Shown: in pieces, positions 3,709 through 64,000 of the stretch
Position numbering within the stretch: the stretch's first letter is position 1
Layout of the letters: every line of letters starts with the position of its first letter
Assembly (NCBI GenBank): GCA_963727825.1
Contig: CAVSHO010000009.1
Coordinates: forward strand, 320,001-384,000
Reading direction: 5' to 3'
Length of the DNA stretch: 64,000 bases
Source of the DNA: Ignavibacteriota bacterium
Lineage (GTDB): Bacteria > Bacteroidota > Ignavibacteria > UBA10030
Position numbers and translations under genes: made by a program
The notes under the pieces: model-generated
What the model saw: only the letters and a program-made list of their open reading frames with translations
Database searches by the model: none
What the model was told of the DNA's origin: nothing

Positions 3709-5058
3709 TTAATACGTCGGAAGATATTTTTCTAATTCCCAGGGAGTCACTTCTAATCGGTAATCTTCCCACTCTAAGCGTTTCGCACTGATGAAACGTT
3801 CGAATATATGTGCGCCCAACGCTTCCCGTATAACGGTATCTTTCTCAAATTCTGAGATTGCCTCTTCGAGCGAACCGGGTAATATATTCAAGTTGGATTT
3901 CTTTTTAGTGTCATTGGAAATGTAAATATTTTCTTCGGAAGCTTCAGGAACTTCCAATTGCCGGCGAATACCATCTAATCCGGAAGCAAGCATTACTGCA
4001 AAGGCAAGATATGGATTGCAGCTTGGGTCGGGGCAGCGCAATTCAATACGGGTTGATTCCGGAGTATGGGCACGCGGAATCCGAATCAATGCAGATTGGT
4101 TAATACGTCCCCAGCTAATATTGACCGGCGCTTCATATCCGATGACAAGGCGTTTATAGGAATTTACAAGCGGTGCAAGCACAGCACACATTCCGCGAGC
4201 ATGAGCAAGTTGGCCAGCTATAAAGTGTTTGGCAATTTTGGAAAGGCCATGCGAATCACCGGGATCCGAAAACGCATTTCCGCCGTTGGCTTTATAATTT
4301 AGTCCCTGATGCACGTGCATACCGCTGCCGGCAAGTCCGCGCAATGGTTTTGGCATGAAAGATGCGTACAAACCCTTCTGCTGGGCGAGTCGTTTCATAA
4401 CAATACGGAAAGTAACGGCATCATCGGCAGTCTTTAATGAATTTGCATAACGCAGATCCATTTCATATTGGCCCTTTGCAACTTCGTGGTGCATTGCTTC
4501 GGCTTCAATTCCAAAGGCTAAAAGAGTTTCCGAAGTTTGCCGCCAGAGATCGGTCGCAACCATATCAGTCGGCATATCAAAATAACTTGCGCTATCGTGC
4601 GGCTGAGGAGGAATAACCCCGCCTTGTTCATTTGGTTTTAAAAGAAAGAATTCCAACTCCGGCCCCGTATTATATACGAACCCCATCTTTTCTGCTTCGC
4701 CCATCATCCTCGCAAGCACTGCCCTCGGATCTCCTAAAAATGGCTGGCTATCCGGTGTATAGACATTACAAATCAACCGCGCGGTCATTTCATTATCCTT
4801 CAACCAGGGAAGGACAGCAAAGGTCGAAGTATCCGGGACCAGATACATATCGCTCTCTGCGGTTCGTGCATATCCTTCGATGCAGGAACCATCAAACCAA
4901 ACACCATGGCTAAGTGTAGTTTCCAATTCCTTCGTTGGGATGGTGACATTCTTCACCGCTCCGCCGACATCAGTAAATTGTAGATCAATGAATTGAATCT
5001 TGCGCTCAGCAACCAGCGCCAGAAGTTCTTTATGCGAATATTGGGGGTATGTTGGCAT
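3709..5058 (-). CDS. glnA: Glutamine synthetase type I family protein
   Basis: FDGS, ESDM, GPELEFF, HHEVA.GQ.E, GSGMHVH, YKRLV.GYEAP and RIELRCPD motifs. Confidence 0.9.
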   Translation of the reverse strand: MPTYPQYSHKELLALVAERKIQFIDLQFTDVGGAVKNVTIPTKELETTLSHGVWFDGSCIEGYARTAESDMYLVPDTSTFAVLPWLKDNEMTARLICNVYTPDSQPFLGDPRAVLARMMGEAEKMGFVYNTGPELEFFLLKPNEQGGVIPPQPHDSASYFDMPTDMVATDLWRQTSETLLAFGIEAEAMHHEVAKGQYEMDLRYANSLKTADDAVTFRIVMKRLAQQKGLYASFMPKPLRGLAGSGMHVHQGLNYKANGGNAFSDPGDSHGLSKIAKHFIAGQLAHARGMCAVLAPLVNSYKRLVIGYEAPVNISWGRINQSALIRIPRAHTPESTRIELRCPDPSCNPYLAFAVMLASGLDGIRRQLEVPEASEENIYISNDTKKKSNLNILPGSLEEAISEFEKDTVIREALGAHIFERFISAKRLEWEDYRLEVTPWELEKYLPTY

Positions 5059-6026
5059 TAGCGTATCGCCTGTAATAGTAGACCAAGGAGTGCAAGTAAT
5101 ATTAATATTCCCAATCCTGCACCAATAGAAAGAAAGATCGATGATTTATAAAATGGAACTGGTATGGATTCTTCATATAACTTATCAAAAACAGAAAGAT
5201 CAACAGACTCCAGATTATCCAAATCATGTAATAATGCTTTCATGTCCGGATACCGATCATCCGGATTTTTCATTAAGCATTTTGCAACAACTGCCGCAAG
5301 CTGCGGAGTGATTTCCGGGCGCTCTTTATCCAGCCGCGGAATTGTTCCGTGCATTTGTTGTGCCATTACTGCTAGATTATTATCTCCGCTGAATGGAGTA
5401 TGCCCGGAAAGAAGTTCAAAAAATATTACACCAAGAGCATAGAGATCAGTTCGTTTATCGCCGCGCTTTCCTTCCACCTGTTCTGGCGCCATATAATCCG
5501 GAGTTCCGGCTGTGCCGCTCAGGTTCGCATAAGTAACCCTGTATGCTCCCTTTGTGAGGGCAAGTCCAAAGTCTAAAATTATCGGTTGACCACTTTCCGT
5601 AAGGAGAATATTTTCCGGTTTCATATCCCTATGTATAATATTATGTTCATGGCAATGAGCAAGCCCATCGGCAATTTTACGGATGAGCTCAACAGCTTCA
5701 TCTATTGGCATTGGCGCAGACCTGCGAATCAATTCCCGCATTGATTCTCCGGTAACCAATTCCGTGATGAGATATGGAGTGCTGTTATATTTTCCGGAAC
5801 CCAATCCTTTTTGGATGGCAGGATGATTTAATGTACGCATCACTTCCAGCTCACGTTGAAATCGCTCATATTGCGCAGGATCTCCTATCGTCATCCGATC
5901 CGGAACTTTTAACACAACATCCTTACCGCTTATAAGATCGTACGCGCGGTAAATATCACTCATTCCACCCTGAGCTATATGCCCGCGTATCTGAAAATGG
6001 TCAAATTGATCGCCTATTTGCAGCAT
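5058..6026 (-). CDS. Hanks-type Ser/Thr protein kinase with C-terminal transmembrane helix
   Basis: GGMS.IY, VVLK, HRDMKPEN, DFGLA, GTPDYMAPE and DLYALG motifs. Confidence 0.93.
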   Translation of the reverse strand: MLQIGDQFDHFQIRGHIAQGGMSDIYRAYDLISGKDVVLKVPDRMTIGDPAQYERFQRELEVMRTLNHPAIQKGLGSGKYNSTPYLITELVTGESMRELIRRSAPMPIDEAVELIRKIADGLAHCHEHNIIHRDMKPENILLTESGQPIILDFGLALTKGAYRVTYANLSGTAGTPDYMAPEQVEGKRGDKRTDLYALGVIFFELLSGHTPFSGDNNLAVMAQQMHGTIPRLDKERPEITPQLAAVVAKCLMKNPDDRYPDMKALLHDLDNLESVDLSVFDKLYEESIPVPFYKSSIFLSIGAGLGILILLALLGLLLQAIR

Positions 6027-56100: not shown

Positions 56101-56139
56101 CAAAACACAAACGCCGATGTTGTTTCCAACACCGGCGTT
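56101..56139 (-). terminator. Terminator-like hairpin, member of a 4-copy repeat family
   Basis: Minus strand reads AACGCCGGTGTTG-GAAA-CAACATCGGCGTT-TGTGTTTTG, downstream of gdhA. Confidence 0.7.
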
Positions 56140-57745: not shown

Positions 57746-57851
57746 CCTCATGTTGGAAGGGAGTTTCACTCCCGACCTTTGCTTGCTCGGGAGAACATCT
57801 CCCTCGCAACTTTGTTCCAAAACACAAAACGCTGATGATGTTTACACCACC
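57746..57851. repeat. ~106-bp direct repeat on one side of the RAYT gene (REP doublet plus terminator-like hairpin)
   Basis: Nearly identical to 58489-58594. Confidence 0.85.
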
Positions 57852-57877
57852 TGCACAATAATATCATTCTGGGTTTT

Positions 57878-58464
57878 TTAAAAGAATAGTACATCTTTTG
57901 GGGTTTCTTTGTCAAATGTCCATGTAATGACATTATTGGCAATGTAATCGCGGATGTTATTTAATTCTTTTTCATTGCGGATAATTCGGTCATAATATCT
58001 TGGCTGCCAAAGCGGTGTATCCCCCGCACCGGTTAAATGCATTTCATTGATTCGTTTTGTAACAGCAGATTTGAATGACCTCACAATTGTCGACAATGAA
58101 CCAGGTACTGGTTTCCTGAATTGTTCCAGTAGTAGGGACGCGGCATGCCGTGTCCCTACTGATTCATTCAATATTAATATTCCATGAATATGGTTCGGCA
58201 GCCGGAGGCCTTAGAATGTTGCCCCGCATCGTGGGGCACCTTCTTTTCATATTCATCCAATACAACATTCGAAAAATGCTCCGGAATTCCTTTCCAACAT
58301 CTATTAATAATATTTCCCTCCTCATTCAAATTCATCTTACCGTCTACAATTGCACCAAACCTGTGTTCATGATTTTGTGCACAAATTGTTACAAAATATT
58401 CTCCCGGCTGGGAATAATCAAATCCTTTAAGGCGAATCGTTTTTCTTTTATGCTTTTCTATCAT
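57878..58464 (-). mobile_element. REP-associated tyrosine transposase (RAYT / Y1 family), disrupted by a short frameshifting insertion
   Basis: RKTIRLKGFDYSQPGEYFVTIC; PNHIHGIL HUH motif in a shifted frame; SL.TIVRSFKS; WQPRYYDRIIRNE...IRDYI.NN; internal palindrome AGTAGGGAC...GTCCCTACT at 58131-58160. Confidence 0.88.
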
Positions 58465-58488
58465 CAACACGATTTCAAAACACAACCG

Positions 58489-58598
58489 CCTCACGCTGGA
58501 AGGGAGTTTCACTCCCGACCTTTGCTTGCTCGGGAGAACATCTCCCTCGCAACTTTGTTCCAAAACACAAAACGCCGATGATGTTTCCAACACCGGCG
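58489..58598. repeat. ~106-bp direct repeat on the other side of the RAYT gene
   Basis: Nearly identical to 57746-57851; ends in the CGCCGATGATGTTTCCAACACCGGCG hairpin. Confidence 0.85.
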
Positions 58599-60120: not shown

Positions 60121-60156
60121 AAACACAAACGCCGATGATGTTTCCACCACCGGCGC
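60121..60156 (-). terminator. Terminator-like hairpin of the same repeat family, downstream of the RT gene
   Basis: AAACACAAACGCCGATGATGTTTCCACCACCGGCG, homologous to 56101-56139 and 58561-58598. Confidence 0.7.
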
Positions 60157-60198
60157 ATTATAGTATTAAAAGAAGAAATGCTCTTTCATTTTGTAAAA

Positions 60199-61041
60199 TT
60201 AATCCGTGTCTTTTACCATTCTCTTTAGATCATCAGCCTGTTGAGGATTTACATATGCTATATAGTCAATTTTCCCTTTGATCGATTTATAGCTTCCTTT
60301 TAAGTTCTTTTTGTAGTCAACAATTTCATGTTTCACGGCATCAACATAACGTTGATTAACCCTTAGTTTAGGATATACTCCAATTCCCATTATCTCTCTT
60401 GGAGATTTGTTATTAAAGACCTCAAATTCATCAAGTAGAAATCCATGCTGTCTAAATATTTTTACAAATAATCTTTGAAACCCTGCTGGGTCAAAATCTG
60501 ACCCAATCACTAAATTGTCTGCATACAGACCGACTCGGAACGCCTCTTTTCCCGCCAATCCGTCGAGTCGAATTATTACAGGATTTAAAGTAAGTGCAGC
60601 AATTTTTGGACTTGTTGGAAATCCTTGAGGAAGTTCAAAATCAAAGGTTATTATTCTTGTAATTAGTTTTGCTGCAGGATTATCAAAATTCAAACCCATG
60701 AGTGTTTTTGTCACCATTGCAGGATAGATTGTAGGATAAAAATCATCGACATCCGCTGCAATCAAGAACTTCGACTTTGAAAATTGAGAAAGCATTTTGA
60801 TATGATTACATCCAGGTTGTAAAAAAAGGAATTTATGCAAAGTGAATTGGCTTAAGATCATCTTATTTATTTTGCGCAACAGATCTTTTAATTCCTCGTT
60901 TGGACATGTGATATCTCGATATCCTCCACTCTTCTTTGCCTTCTTCCGCTTTTTCACCATATAAGACAGATTGCGTGCAATAAAAGAAAGATACTCTTCT
61001 CTTTTATTAAGACGATTCGCAATCTCCTGGATTAAGATCAT
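60199..61041 (-). CDS. Divergent retron-like reverse transcriptase (YADN variant)
   Basis: KKSGGYRDI..P..ELK (RT1), DVDDFYPTI (RT3), LPQGFPTSP (RT4), YADNL (RT5), IMGI at the VTG position. ATG at 61041, or TTG at 61053. Confidence 0.88.
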   Translation of the reverse strand: MILIQEIANRLNKREEYLSFIARNLSYMVKKRKKAKKSGGYRDITCPNEELKDLLRKINKMILSQFTLHKFLFLQPGCNHIKMLSQFSKSKFLIAADVDDFYPTIYPAMVTKTLMGLNFDNPAAKLITRIITFDFELPQGFPTSPKIAALTLNPVIIRLDGLAGKEAFRVGLYADNLVIGSDFDPAGFQRLFVKIFRQHGFLLDEFEVFNNKSPREIMGIGVYPKLRVNQRYVDAVKHEIVDYKKNLKGSYKSIKGKIDYIAYVNPQQADDLKRMVKDTD

Positions 61042-61053
61042 TGAGGTGAACAA

Positions 61054-61296
61054 TTAATAAGATTGAATAAGTAGTGTTCGTTGGGGTTCTAAATAAGTTT
61101 TGTGGGAGAAGCTCACGATGATCGAGATTAACTTAGCAATAAATTCTAAAACTCTTAACAAAAAACCCAAAGGTTTTTCATTCCGATTTAAGAATTTAAC
61201 AAACTTACTTTTCTTTCTCGAATATCTATAAAGCTTCTCCCTTCTCCTGATTCGATTATAACATCGAATTAAGCGAAGTACAAGCTTCCTTTTCAT
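61054..61296 (-). CDS. 80-aa basic protein with a C-terminal hydrophobic/amphipathic helix (putative RT-associated effector)
   Basis: Strong Shine-Dalgarno (AGAAAGGAGG) 8 nt before the ATG; abuts the RT frame. Confidence 0.65.
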   Translation of the reverse strand: MKRKLVLRLIRCYNRIRRREKLYRYSRKKSKFVKFLNRNEKPLGFLLRVLEFIAKLISIIVSFSHKTYLEPQRTLLIQSY

Positions 61297-61581
61297 GTTC
61301 TTTTCCTCCTTTCTAATCGTTTAGTGGAACATATCATTATGAATCGATGATTAGTCGCCACAATGCCTGTACTTTCAAAACTTGAAAAAAAACGCATAGA
61401 GCGTTTCGTTTTATCCATGCATTGCACTGTATAAATTTCTGCAATTGCATAATTGTCTAATAAACAGATATATATTCTCCTATTTATTAGAAATTCTCAG
61501 ATTGGTTTGAACACATATACCCAAATCAACCGAGATACGGCTAGTTTCGCCGGGAAAAGAGGCTAACCTTAGAACATGAAA
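61291..61581 (-). ncRNA. Putative structured RT-associated ncRNA or 5' leader (~290 nt)
   Basis: 11-bp terminal inverted repeat TTTCATGTTCT/AGAACATGAAA plus a 9-bp inner helix enclose about six stem-loops; no ORF. Confidence 0.6.
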
Positions 61582-61689
61582 TTTCAAAGAACATCTAACA
61601 ACTAAAACAAAAAACATTTCTTAAAAAATATTATCAAGAAAAACCGTTCGTGTTTCCATCCCACCAAACAACGTCGGGACGTCAGCATA

Positions 61690-64000
61690 TCAGGAACATC
61701 CTGATGTGCTTCCACACTCCAGACATTTGTAACACGAGCCGCTTCGAATCATAATGCTTCCGCACTCGTGGCATGGAGGTGCATCGGATTGTGTTTCAAA
61801 TACAAATTTCTCGTTCTTCTCCAGCACCGAGGCAGCTTTTGTCGCCGCAGCATTGAGAATCGCACCCGGTTTTTTCGCAGTCTCTGCACTAATTTTTACA
61901 TCGCTCATTGGCGCCTCACCGCGATCCTCTATAAGGAACTTCTTACCAAGCCATCGGAAAATATAATCGCTAACCGACTTTGCAATCGGTATCTCCGGAT
62001 TGTTAGTAAAACCGGATGGTTCATAGCGCGCGTGGCTGAACTTATCCACCAGCACTTTCAGCGGCACACCGTACTGCAGAGCAATCGAAACAGACGTTGC
62101 CAGAGAATCCATTAATCCGGAAATCGTGGAACCCTCTTTAGACATCGTTATGAACAACTCGCCGGGTGATCCGTCTTCAAACATCCCGACGGTGATATAA
62201 CCTTCGTGGCCGGCAATACTGAATTTGTGCGTGATAGATTGGCGTTCATCCGGCAAATGCCGCCGGGCAGGTTTGTTACTTATCTGCAGTTTTTCCTTTT
62301 TCTTGTCGAGTGAAGTACTGAGAGGCTGTGTACGCTTGCATCCGTCGCGGTATACAGCAATAGCTTTTAATCCAAGTCTCCATGCTTCGGTATACGCTTT
62401 CATGATATCTTCTGCATTCACATCGGTCGGCATGTTCACAGTTTTGGAGATCGCACCGGAAAGGAATGGTTGTGATGCCGCCATCATCTTAATATGCCCC
62501 ATATAGGGAATGAAGCGCTTGCCGTTTGCCGGTTTGAATGCGCAGTCAAATACCCGAAGATGTTCTTCCTTCAAATGCGGCGCACCTTCGATTGTGTCGT
62601 TCTTATCGATATAAGAAATAATGTGTTCAATCTGTTCATCGTCGTAGCCCAATTTCGTGAGTGCTTCCGGCACTGTTTGGTTGACGATCTTCATCAATCC
62701 GCCACCGCTCATCTTTTTATACTTCACAAGAGCGATATCAGGTTCAATTCCTGTGGTGTCACAATCCATCATGAACCCGATTGTGCCTGTCGGAGCAAGA
62801 ACTGTCGTTTGCGAATTGCGGATGCCGTGCATTCGTCCAAGTTCAACAACATCTTTCCATACGTTACACTGCGCTTCCCATAGACTTGGTTCTACCGCAT
62901 TCTTATCGATGCGTTCTGCGTGAATGCCATGTTTCGCCATCACGTTCAACATCGGGTCTTTATTTACTGCGAATCCGCTAAACGGTCCTTGTGCTTGAGC
63001 AATCTTAGCAGATTGTTTGTACGCTTCGCCACTCATTAATGATGTGATAGCAGCGGTTAATGTTCTGCCCTCATCGCTATCGTACGCAACACCGCGGGAC
63101 ATCAGCATTGCGCCGAGGTTTGCATACCCGAGTCCGAGCGGGCGATAGTCGTGGCTGTTTTGCGCAATTGCCGGTGTCGGGTAACTCGAGTTATCAACGG
63201 ACATTTCCATTGCGGTAATTGTAACCTGAATAGCTTTTTTAAACGCTTCCACATCGAGATCGCCGTTTGCCCTACGAAACTTCATCAGGTTCAAAGATGC
63301 AAGGTTGCATGCACTGTCATCAAGGAACATGTACTCGCTGCAAGGATTGGATGAATAAATCGGTGCGGTACCGGAACATGTGTGCCAGTTGTTGATCGTT
63401 GTATCAAATTGAATACCCGGGTCGCCACATATCCATGCTGCATCGGCAATTTGTTTCATCAGATCGCGCGCGCGGAATTTTTCTACCGGCATTCCGCCTT
63501 TTACAGCTTTGGTCCAAAATTCCTTATCTTCCAGAACAGCTTTCATGAATTCATCGCTTACACGAATAGAGTGATTGGCGTTTTGATAGAACACAGAATC
63601 ATACGCGCCGCCTGGAACATTGAATCCACCGTCGTAACCCGCATCGATGAGCGCACAAGCTTTTTTCTCTTCTTCCGCTTTACAATTGATGAAACTGATA
63701 ATATCCGGATGGTCGACATTTAATATTACCATCTTTGCAGCGCGGCGTGTCTTGCCACCGGATTTAATCACGCCTGCAAACGCATCGTACCCTTTCATAA
63801 ACGAAACCGGGCCGGATGCAGTACCGCCGCCGGTAATGCGTTCCTTGGAAGAACGAAGTGTCGAAAGATTAGAACCTGTGCCCGAACCGTACTTAAAGAG
63901 CATACCTTCTGTCTTTGCAAGCTCCAGTATGGAGGTCATTGAATCTTTCACTGAATTAATAAAGCAGGCCGAACATTGCGGCATTTTTTCTACACCCACA
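61690..64000 (-). CDS. nrdJ: Class II (adenosylcobalamin-dependent) ribonucleotide reductase, 5' end outside the window
   Basis: PQCSACFI, RRAAKM, SNPCSEY, APTGTI, TSCPD-like domain and C-terminal Zn ribbon. Confidence 0.94.
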   Translation of the reverse strand, partial: VGVEKMPQCSACFINSVKDSMTSILELAKTEGMLFKYGSGTGSNLSTLRSSKERITGGGTASGPVSFMKGYDAFAGVIKSGGKTRRAAKMVILNVDHPDIISFINCKAEEEKKACALIDAGYDGGFNVPGGAYDSVFYQNANHSIRVSDEFMKAVLEDKEFWTKAVKGGMPVEKFRARDLMKQIADAAWICGDPGIQFDTTINNWHTCSGTAPIYSSNPCSEYMFLDDSACNLASLNLMKFRRANGDLDVEAFKKAIQVTITAMEMSVDNSSYPTPAIAQNSHDYRPLGLGYANLGAMLMSRGVAYDSDEGRTLTAAITSLMSGEAYKQSAKIAQAQGPFSGFAVNKDPMLNVMAKHGIHAERIDKNAVEPSLWEAQCNVWKDVVELGRMHGIRNSQTTVLAPTGTIGFMMDCDTTGIEPDIALVKYKKMSGGGLMKIVNQTVPEALTKLGYDDEQIEHIISYIDKNDTIEGAPHLKEEHLRVFDCAFKPANGKRFIPYMGHIKMMAASQPFLSGAISKTVNMPTDVNAEDIMKAYTEAWRLGLKAIAVYRDGCKRTQPLSTSLDKKKEKLQISNKPARRHLPDERQSITHKFSIAGHEGYITVGMFEDGSPGELFITMSKEGSTISGLMDSLATSVSIALQYGVPLKVLVDKFSHARYEPSGFTNNPEIPIAKSVSDYIFRWLGKKFLIEDRGEAPMSDVKISAETAKKPGAILNAAATKAASVLEKNEKFVFETQSDAPPCHECGSIMIRSGSCYKCLECGSTSGCS

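Follow-up and report, generated by a model that had tools for sequence, protein, structure and literature searches.

The systems that the locus analysed here most resembles in design are the type VI retrons, in which a non-coding RNA (ncRNA), a small protein (SP), a helix-turn-helix protein (HTH) and a reverse transcriptase (RT) are encoded in that order (Zhang et al., 10.1101/2025.10.22.683967; Garcia-Rodriguez et al., 10.64898/2026.04.27.721009). The SP is reported to be toxic, with toxicity requiring its hydrophobic C-terminal helix (10.1101/2025.10.22.683967), and the ncRNA to lie within ~280 nucleotides (nt) of the SP start, with the SP ribosome-binding site (RBS) in the basal stem (10.64898/2026.04.27.721009). 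For Vpa2, RNA and SP are described as a single 'hybrid RNA', in whose stems the RBS and the AUG are kept; SP translation is repressed until multicopy single-stranded DNA (msDNA) accumulates, the HTH represses reverse transcription, defence requires RT catalysis, and a catalytically dead RT still neutralises the toxin (10.1101/2025.10.22.683967). For Sen3, the HTH is reported to be the antitoxin of the SP and single-stranded DNA (ssDNA) to be made constitutively; the Sen3 and Vpa2 SPs share a fold at 1.9% identity, and among 158 type VI entries ~78% have an HTH (~27% of those with a recognised SP) and ~22% have none (10.64898/2026.04.27.721009). Retrons in general are marked by the motifs NAxxH (H most conserved) and VTG (G most conserved) by terminal inverted repeats a1 and a2, and by a branching G from which cDNA synthesis is primed (Mestre et al. 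2020, PMC7736814), and a 2026 SPIRE survey is reported to place the type VI references among the most divergent retron RTs. Here, a compact cassette of a structured leader RNA, a small open reading frame (ORF) and a retron-type RT gene is described from a stretch of 64,000 nt of an Ignavibacteriota bacterium (contig CAVSHO010000009.1, positions 320,001 to 384,000 of the forward strand; hereafter the window) and compared with these systems.

All positions given below are those of the window. The parts of the cassette, for which an earlier note on this DNA had given strand, coordinates, sizes and RT motifs that all proved correct, are listed here, with lengths of proteins in amino acids (aa).

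60157..61640 (approximate limits), minus strand: whole accessory cassette, comprising leader, small ORF, RT and a short 3' tail
61297..61590, minus strand: structured leader RNA, ~290 nt; the covariance model R1 (see below) matches 61286-61590
61054..61296, minus strand: small ORF, 80 aa, candidate effector or toxin
60199..61041, minus strand: retron-type RT, 280 aa, from an ATG start; an alternative TTG at 61053 gives 284 aa

The order of RNA, small protein and RT is that of the type VI retrons Vpa2, Sen3 and Eco12 (RT clade 3 of Mestre et al. 2020). The likeness extends to the distance spanned by the RNA (~280-300 nt from the SP start in type VI, ~290 nt for this leader), the placement of the RBS in a basal or closing stem (with the AUG also sequestered in Vpa2), a helical small protein of 55-80 aa with a hydrophobic C-terminal helix, and a minimal RT of ~280-310 aa with no fused domain. 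We lean, with moderate confidence, towards reading the cassette as a minimal two-gene retron-like module of type VI design that lacks the HTH and in which an RNA lock is set on a small toxic protein. Under this reading, leader and small ORF would be transcribed as one RNA, and at rest two stacked long-range helices would join the leader 5' end to the Shine-Dalgarno sequence (SD) and the AUG, such that the small protein stays untranslated while the RT binds the leader RNA. A trigger, most likely phage infection, would lead to RT-dependent cDNA synthesis or to remodelling of the leader, either of which would open the lock; the basic small protein with its hydrophobic helix would then be made and growth would stop (abortive infection). 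In this scheme we infer the single transcript, the toxic action of the small protein, cDNA synthesis on the leader, the nature of the trigger and the role in defence.

Conservation was assessed over six distinct loci with flanking DNA. These were the window locus (WIN); L001 and L002, metagenome contigs from related organisms; L003, which has an unrelated genomic context and an RT 40% identical to that of WIN; L006, which is identical to L016, a gammaproteobacterial Wenzhouxiangella metagenome-assembled genome (MAG), and has an RT 41% identical to that of WIN; and L004, counted as one locus with its twin L005 (ORFs were listed for L004, and L005 was scanned with the RNA model only). The earlier note had proposed a compact three-part cassette and had suggested looking for the small ORF and leader in homologs; leader, small ORF and RT were indeed found conserved together in five of the six loci, with L004 as the exception. 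In these five (WIN, L001, L002, L003 and L006) the small ORF lies directly 5' of the RT, and its stop abuts or overlaps the RT start in every case. Because the two ORFs abut or overlap, and the window RT start has no visible good SD before it, translational coupling between them is possible. Ratios of nonsynonymous to synonymous substitution (dN/dS) of 0.21-0.46 in the small ORF and 0.09-0.13 in the RT indicate purifying selection on both genes, and the two travel together.

The leader contains the following elements, all on the minus strand.

61571..61581, minus strand: anti-AUG strand, UUUCAUGUUCU, the 5' half of helix P0; with 61291-61301 it makes a perfect inverted repeat of 11 nt
61554..61562, minus strand: 5' strand of helix P1 (anti-SD), CCUCUUUUC, pairing with GAAAGGAGG in 5/5 loci
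61538-61552, 61495-61535 and 61456-61491, minus strand: hairpins H1, H2 and H3
61416-61451, 61389-61407 and 61324-61361, minus strand: hairpins H4, H5 (followed by a U-run and UUUCAAGU) and H6
61291..61321, minus strand: small-ORF initiation region, with single-stranded AACGAUUAG at 61313-61321 and the SD, GAAAGGAGG, at 61305-61313
61294-61296, minus strand: small-ORF AUG, inside the P0 3' strand (61291-61301)

That a segment of ~290 nt is structured, as had been supposed, was borne out by folding (z = -4.0 and -4.1, with 0/100 shuffles equally good), and across loci the fold z-scores were -4.1 for the window, -5.5 for L002, -4.2 for L003 and -6.7 for L006. P0 was present in the minimum-free-energy folds of all five loci, and all eight bases of SD and AUG paired with the leader 5' end in 5/5; when the upstream part was shuffled as a control, a mean of 4.9-6.3 of the 8 bases paired and 2-13 of 60 shuffles reached 8/8. 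When the leader was folded together with the whole ORF, P1 was kept in all five loci and P0 in four, the P0 5' strand of L006 pairing instead with the 3' end of the ORF. No recurrent pairing of the leader with the coding region or 3' end of the small ORF was found across the loci, such pairing (20 bp) being confined to L006.

The four independent folds (window, L002, L003 and L006) show a common plan. From 5' to 3' it consists of the P0 strand, the P1 anti-SD strand (CCUCUUUUC, CCUCCUUUC or CCUUCUUUC), a small hairpin of the form CGRC/GYCG and further hairpins that vary; then come a hairpin with a U-run and UUUCAAGU behind it, one more hairpin, a single-stranded AACGAUYAG and the SD. The ordered set H1-H6 recurs in WIN, L001, L002 and L006 and is similar in L003, and the segment AACGAUYAGRAAGGAGG is kept even in L003 and L006. 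In anchored pair tables, the two closing helices show changes on both strands, at P0 offsets -1 (G:C to C:G), -2 (U:A to G:C) and +4 (U:A to C:G) and at P1 offset +5; P0 and P1 keep a constant distance, of 17-19 nt between their 5' strands and 13-15 nt between their 3' strands. H1 shifts from CGGC/GCCG to CGAC/GUCG in L006, and helices 3-11 of the model covary.

The covariance model R1 was made from the three close loci (WIN, L001 and L002). It detected the leaders of L006 (39.2 bits, E=7e-11) and L003 (19.6 bits, E=2e-4), both at full length and correctly placed, and in 13 other loci, among them L004, L005 and five canonical type VI loci, returned no match better than E=0.26. On the alignment guided by R1, 92.5% of cells were paired (41-46% when the partners were slid), and changes on both sides were seen in 46 of 94 pairs (5-10 when slid), six of the ten pairs of P0 among them; none of 500 shuffles reached any of five measures. 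At the nucleotide level the leader is the best-conserved segment of the cassette: identity between WIN and L001 is 90.1% in the leader, 86.8% in the small ORF and 74.5% in the RT, and between WIN and L002 it is 74.7%, 61.3% and 65.7%, respectively. A search of Rfam gave no family at gathering score (four matches for the locus, all at E>=0.79, and none for the whole window). Comparative analysis thus identifies the leader as a real, conserved and covarying structured RNA with SD and AUG placed in its closing stems.

Three features of the leaders are recorded as side observations. Each of the five leaders, drawn from different phyla, has a GUUCUUU box (61581-61595 in the window) ~10 nt 5' of its anti-AUG strand; in L001, L002 and L006 the box follows, or forms part of, a small hairpin. 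Across the loci, no conserved direct repeat of 7 nt was found to match that of Vpa2 RNA. L006 has an 8-nt direct repeat, GTAATTTA, in the loops of H4 and H6, with copies near 4462-4469 and 4538-4545 (positions 143 and 219 of the leader when the stretch is counted from 4320); the other four leaders have no equivalent, and the arrangement recalls the loop-to-loop direct repeats that have been proposed to act in the Vpa2 hybrid RNA.

Locks of this kind are not confined to retrons. In type I toxin-antitoxin systems of the hok/sok type, long-range pairing between 5' and 3' parts of the transcript hides the toxin RBS. The cassette resembles these in having a small basic protein with a hydrophobic helix and an SD and start codon paired to a distant segment of the same transcript, and differs from them in that the lock sits in a retron-like multi-hairpin RNA paired with an RT gene; no gene for an antisense RNA was found, although no search aimed at one was made.

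The RT itself matches a single Pfam family, RVT_1 (46.6 bits), which agrees with the earlier note that it has no extra domain. The ATG at 61041 is favoured as its start because six of nine homologues found are 280 aa long. The motifs that had been quoted from the window (KKSGGYRDITCP, QGFPTSP, NHIKMLSQF and EIMGIGV) were read again as given, and the most unusual feature of the enzyme, its motif C, had been missed:

60514..60525, minus strand: motif C codons TAT GCA GAC AAT, read from the sequence as Y-A-D-N, residues 173-176

Where retron RTs have YxDD, Y[AG]DN is found in all 19 sequences of the clade set (the window RT and P0001-P0018), at a position that aligns to the YADD of Ec86. The other 140 retron-like RTs in the alignment divide into 130 with DD and 10 with DN, the latter including P0053, P0071, P0076, P0087, P0108, P0129, P0138, P0147 and P0153. 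At least six changes of the DD/DN state are needed on a tree of 156 rows, so Asn at the second motif C position is a recurrent state. In region X, which lies between RT2 and RT3 and is NAxxH in retrons, the N-A is gone from 19/19 clade members; the window RT and P0001-P0008 read M-L-S-Q-F there, with F replacing H, and the His is kept in seven of ten distant members (P0009, 10, 11, 14, 15, 17 and 18). Region Y, the RT7 triplet that is VTG in retrons, reads IMG, VMG, LMG or AMG in the subclade of the window, with the G kept, and IMN or IKN in six of ten distant members (P0009, 10, 13, 14, 15 and 18). Throughout the clade QGFPTS, the Asp of motif A and the first motif C Asp do not vary. The unusual motifs are themselves fixed although identity within the clade falls to 33%, and from this and the dN/dS values the RT is best described as a variant under selection, not as a decayed copy.

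The clade is small. A word-indexed search of 5.8 billion proteins returned a family of nine, and an exhaustive HMMER scan of 1.84 billion cluster representatives gave ten at E<=1e-30, after which the score fell from 148.6 to 112.1 bits. None of seven clade proteins that were looked up has an informative name. No clade RT was found in phage and plasmid collections (best identity 27%), and viral contigs gave one match, at 23% identity. In genome contigs, a single-sequence RT scan gave no relative and an alignment-based scan gave 28 loci, of which L016 was the sole clade member. No description of a YADN retron-RT lineage was found in the literature searched; supplementary tables on type VI may list members, for instance among the ~22% of entries that have no HTH.

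By its sequence matches, the RT belongs to the retron or retron-like class. PADLOC returned 39 models, the best 25 of which are all retron RT models, with no defence-associated reverse transcriptase (DRT) or unknown group (UG) model among those 25. The highest scores of the window RT were near-tied (II-A 118.0, VI 117.0 and III-A 109.9 bits), in keeping with the earlier view that it matches no retron type cleanly; the best NCBIfam model, retron_St85_RT, has a cutoff of 235 bits and gave 103.8. With a clade profile, 13 PDB sequences were matched, 12 of which carry the name of a retron RT or retron protein; the alignment to the Ec86 RT was full-length (residues 19-307, E=1.9e-31), across fingers, palm and the C-terminal retron-specific region. 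The DRT systems that the earlier note had named beside the retrons (DRT2, DRT9 and DRT10) are hence not the closest comparison. DRT2 and DRT9, of the UG/Abi group, do resemble the cassette, their RT being compact and directly preceded by a structured ncRNA some hundreds of nucleotides long; they differ in that the cassette RT is retron-class by PADLOC (best 25 of 39) and by its PDB matches. We know of no DRT2- or DRT9-type system with a small ORF embedded in its RNA.

Within the retrons, the nearest neighbours of the RT that carry clear or leaning PADLOC labels match RT_VI best in the majority. Clear members score 216-252 bits on RT_VI (P0021, P0032, P0058, P0065, P0066, P0070 and P0103) and 241-383 bits on III-A (P0023, P0025, P0036, P0040 and P0046). 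The YADN clade is monophyletic (overall support 97-99; 98 with FastTree on 156 rows and 97 with IQ-TREE under LG+C20 on 55 rows). In the IQ-TREE tree it joins the xxDN sequences P0087, P0053 and P0147 at support 91, and together these join, at support 80, a weakly labelled set of which some lean towards RT_VI. Grouping the clade with eight strongly labelled type VI RTs was not rejected by an approximately unbiased (AU) test (log-likelihood difference 23.9, p = 0.157), which covered 32 of the 55 rows under LG+G4, with the group named after the tree had been seen. Placed in this way, the RT is retron-class and nearest to the type VI region, and membership of type VI is neither demonstrated nor contradicted.

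For direct comparison, five canonical type VI loci were surveyed (L017, L021, L029, L031 and L035). They have a small ORF, an HTH (Pfam HTH_3 for L017) and an RT with W[IV]DD; for L035, a small ORF alone was seen upstream. The cassette differs from type VI in its YADN (W[IV]DD in the five canonical loci, YADD in Vpa2), in the loss of N-A from NAxxH throughout its clade, in RT_VI scores about half those of true members, and in the charge of its small protein (+18, as against -1 for that of L017). Sequestration of the AUG as well as the SD in the closing stems is listed as a further difference.

Several observations weigh against the type VI-like reading. An HTH gene was found in none of the five small-ORF loci: no ORF lies between small ORF and RT in WIN, L001, L002, L003 or L006, and Pfam identified no HTH in the neighbouring ORFs; the middle gene of L017, taken as a positive control, did match HTH_3. 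With the HTH absent, the regulation here cannot match that of Sen3 or Vpa2. A profile comparison by hhalign gave no homology between the small-protein family and one canonical type VI small protein (probability 0.2%), and R1 matched nothing in the five canonical loci. The RT_VI scores of the window RT and its clade (117-161 bits) are near-tied with those for II-A and III-A, and a weak split (support 72) in the IQ-TREE tree separates the clade from the strongly labelled type VI RTs. L004 and L005 have a clade RT with neither leader nor small ORF. As to the RNA, pairing of SD and AUG in a single fold is weak evidence because shuffled sequences often pair too; the covariation comes from five sequences of three lineages in an alignment fitted to the model; and no conserved unpaired G beside the closing stem could be assigned as the branching G, no msd was identified, and no long msd-like hairpin was seen. 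Since YADN replaces a residue of the catalytic triad, cDNA synthesis by the RT is uncertain, and an HIV-1 RT with both D185N and D186N is reported to be inactive, a double mutant that does not isolate the second position.

The motif C change may also be part of the design. On a tentative reading, which we think doubtful, YADN throttles the RT so that cDNA is made slowly, or only under certain metal or other conditions; this restraint would replace the HTH repressor by which msDNA is kept low in type VI retrons like Vpa2, and enough cDNA to open the lock would be made only during infection. Bearing on whether YADN can polymerise, the second Asp is reported not to be a direct metal ligand in ternary complexes of HIV-1 RT, and the poliovirus polymerase is reported to become Mn-dependent when its GDD is changed to GDN. 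In a bolder sub-variant of the throttled-RT reading, the RT may never polymerise and may act as a protein clamp of the RNA switch.

Taken as an explanation in its own right, the clamp would make the RT a non-polymerising RNA-binding protein and the cassette a toxin-antitoxin or addiction module, with the leader, kept in shape by the RT, as a lock in cis on a small toxin and no cDNA at all. We regard this as unlikely. The replacement of the second YxDD Asp by Asn in 19/19 clade members, the loss of N-A in 19/19 and of the H in the subclade of the window, and the reported lack of polymerase activity in HIV-1 RT D185N/D186N count in its favour, and the dead RT of Vpa2 that still neutralises its toxin is a precedent for a structural role (10.1101/2025.10.22.683967). 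However, the other polymerase motifs are invariant and dN/dS is ~0.1, which suggests a preserved active site; Asn at this position arose at least six times among 156 retron-like RTs; GDN occurs natively in an active palm-domain polymerase, measles L, of which GDN(Q) is reported to be the catalytic motif C and in which N774A abolishes activity; and defence by Vpa2 depends on RT catalysis (10.1101/2025.10.22.683967).

The favoured reading also takes the small protein to be a toxin. The 80-aa protein has a net charge of +18, of which +15 falls in the N-terminal half, where an arginine-rich amphipathic helix (hydrophobic moment 0.66) is predicted; a single hydrophobic helix follows at residues 43-61 (Kyte-Doolittle maximum 2.09 over 19 residues), and then S-H-K-T-Y. 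The description of a small basic membrane protein in the earlier note was right as to the charge, and the Kyte-Doolittle value makes the membrane location plausible without proving it. A profile search of 5.8 billion proteins gave a family of 17, none with an informative name. In a 16-sequence alignment the core consists of an N-terminal VLxLIR..RI helix, a basic linker and the hydrophobic helix, which carries a conserved acidic residue with a Lys four positions on, and the C-terminal part reads S-x-K-T-[YC] with the Thr invariant. Nothing significant was found for the small ORF in Pfam, PADLOC or NCBIfam (one Pfam row, TSGA13, at E=0.014, is below cutoff).

These properties would also suit a nucleic-acid-binding accessory, either a substitute for the HTH or a chaperone of RNA or cDNA, with arrest or defence coming from the RT product or a host factor. 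We give this explanation a rather small chance. The high charge, concentrated in the N-terminal half with its Arg-rich amphipathic helix, speaks for it, as do the conserved acidic residue and Lys in the hydrophobic helix, which are unusual for a plain membrane span, and the different gene found upstream of the RT in L004/L005. Against these stand the tight and conserved sequestration of SD and AUG, as expected for a protein that is harmful when made, the reported toxicity of type VI small proteins in the same gene position, and the Kyte-Doolittle maxima of 1.6-2.2 over 19 residues in all five family members examined, which fit a membrane-active helix.

The gene upstream of the RT in L004 is a 305-aa ORF (4091-5008) with a lipoprotein-like signal and a match to the EEP (endonuclease/exonuclease/phosphatase) family that falls just under the Pfam cutoff (24.0 against 24.5 bits). 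It ends 29 nt inside the RT start (RT 4980-5882), an overlap equal to that of the small ORF in L003, and the L004 RT is sister to the L003 RT at support 99; L005 has the same match statistics. This EEP-like ORF may be an alternative partner to the RT or a replacement for the small ORF. Separately, a Saccharibacteria MAG (L032) has a 47-aa basic ORF (3711-3854) with a hydrophobic C-terminal helix directly 5' of an RT (3908-4873), which is a YADD retron-like RT outside the YADN clade; this small-ORF and RT pair likewise has no HTH.

It is quite improbable, in our view, that the cassette is instead a classical retron of a separate type, in which abundant constitutive msDNA together with the RT holds the small protein inactive until the msDNA is disturbed by phage, and the pairing of SD and AUG is an incidental consequence of the a1/a2 stem. 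Terminal inverted repeats that close a multi-hairpin ncRNA are a general retron feature (PMC7736814), constitutive ssDNA is possible in type VI, as Sen3 demonstrates (10.64898/2026.04.27.721009), the type II-A model is nominally top in PADLOC, and the closest solved RT is that of the II-A retron Ec86 (Eco1). Ec86 has YADD, NAxxH and VTG, all of which are altered in the cassette RT; its msDNA acts as an antitoxin, whereas the cassette design matches translational locking instead. The Ec86 effector is a nucleoside deoxyribosyltransferase-like protein. Against the classical reading, the overlap of the closing helices with SD and AUG is kept with compensatory changes and constant spacing down to RT identities of ~40%, a pattern that points to the overlap as a target of selection; neither a branching G nor a long msd-like hairpin is seen, and YADN fits poorly with msDNA synthesis at high copy.

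Almost no credence is given to a functionless, decaying remnant of a known retron type, for which the loss of NAxxH in the subclade of the window, the changes of VTG to IMG and of YADD to YADN, the lack of an HTH and of a recognised effector and the low scores on all type models could be cited, but in which one would not expect two intact ORFs with dN/dS of 0.09-0.13 (RT) and 0.21-0.46 (small ORF), unusual motifs fixed across a clade, a covarying leader, and three parts that recur in unrelated contexts, a gammaproteobacterial MAG included. The earlier note had itself raised decay of a known retron; dN/dS and leader covariation contradict this, and the explanation was rejected. Its phrase 'candidate new RT system' was overstated in another respect, as gene order, buried RBS and minimal RT together form the published type VI design, which it had not considered.

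The cassette is an accessory element of its genome. On the minus strand, the 3' end of nrdJ (stop at 61690) is followed by ~390 nt without a notable ORF (the non-coding span from 61297 to the nrdJ stop), the 80-aa ORF, the RT ORF, ~40 nt, a G+C-rich hairpin with a T-run (60129-60156) and a gene for a Beta-lactamase-family hydrolase. The nrdJ product is a class II ribonucleotide reductase (Pfam Ribonuc_red_lgC and TSCPD). The AT-richness of the cassette between these two genes, already remarked on in the earlier note, was confirmed (GC content 0.32-0.36 within the cassette and 0.44-0.50 in the flanks), and both flanking genes were matched by Pfam. No tRNA genes were found. The RT is single-copy in its own 3.12-Mb genome and was not found at E<=1e-20 in any of the 60 related genomes searched, 15 of which belong to the same genus. 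In a DNA search of these 15 congeners, the nrdJ end was matched in 13, the hairpin in 8, the hydrolase in 1 and the cassette in none (G004 gave no match, and G013 matched the hairpin alone). In the aligned empty sites, the nrdJ stop is followed by a short hairpin and then by the same palindrome, which resembles a repetitive extragenic palindrome (REP), with nothing between. Given these empty sites and a multi-copy palindrome already present there, ~1.48 kb (about 60157-61640) has been inserted between nrdJ and the pre-existing REP-like element.

60129..60156, minus strand: REP-like palindrome and T-run just 3' of the RT, from the terminator scan; copies follow nrdJ in congeners

The earlier note had counted this terminator-like hairpin among the parts of the cassette. 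It is an element of the host site and lies outside the cassette, since congeners without the cassette already have it 3' of nrdJ; it is probably the terminator. Four copies with the core GCCGGTGGTGGAAACATCATCGGCG occur in the last 8 kb of the window (56112-56136, 57830-57854, 58573-58597 and 60130-60154, all minus strand), where none is expected, and each lies directly after a minus-strand gene. Beside the palindrome, ORFs 57878-58171 and 58174-58593 resemble the halves of a split Y1 transposase of IS200/RAYT type; the C-terminal half has a Y1_Tnp match of 24.5 bits, and the N-terminal half was judged by eye.

L001 and L002 have the cassette at the same site, next to an nrdJ of 88-90% amino-acid identity. 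The nrdJ genes pair L001 with L002 (89% nucleotide identity), whereas leader (90%) and RT (74.5%) pair WIN with L001. This discordance points to exchange of the cassette at the shared site, or else to very uneven rates.

According to preprints of 2025-2026, type VI retrons work unlike all other retrons, with a small toxin gene embedded in the retron RNA and the toxin held in check by an HTH antitoxin or regulated through translation that depends on cDNA. The cassette, at ~1.5 kb, is among the most compact candidate RT-based switches, and its leader RNA, small-protein family and RT clade are all unnamed across the libraries searched. If the throttled-RT reading is true, N176D should render the cassette constitutively toxic, and the change of D to N in motif C would be a general evolutionary route for tuning defence RTs. 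The YADN clade amounts to a natural experiment, in which the RNA lock and small protein are kept, the HTH is absent and the catalytic triad is changed; because of what it has retained and lost, it could show which parts of the design are essential, how an RT is restrained without a repressor, and whether an RT with xxDN is active.

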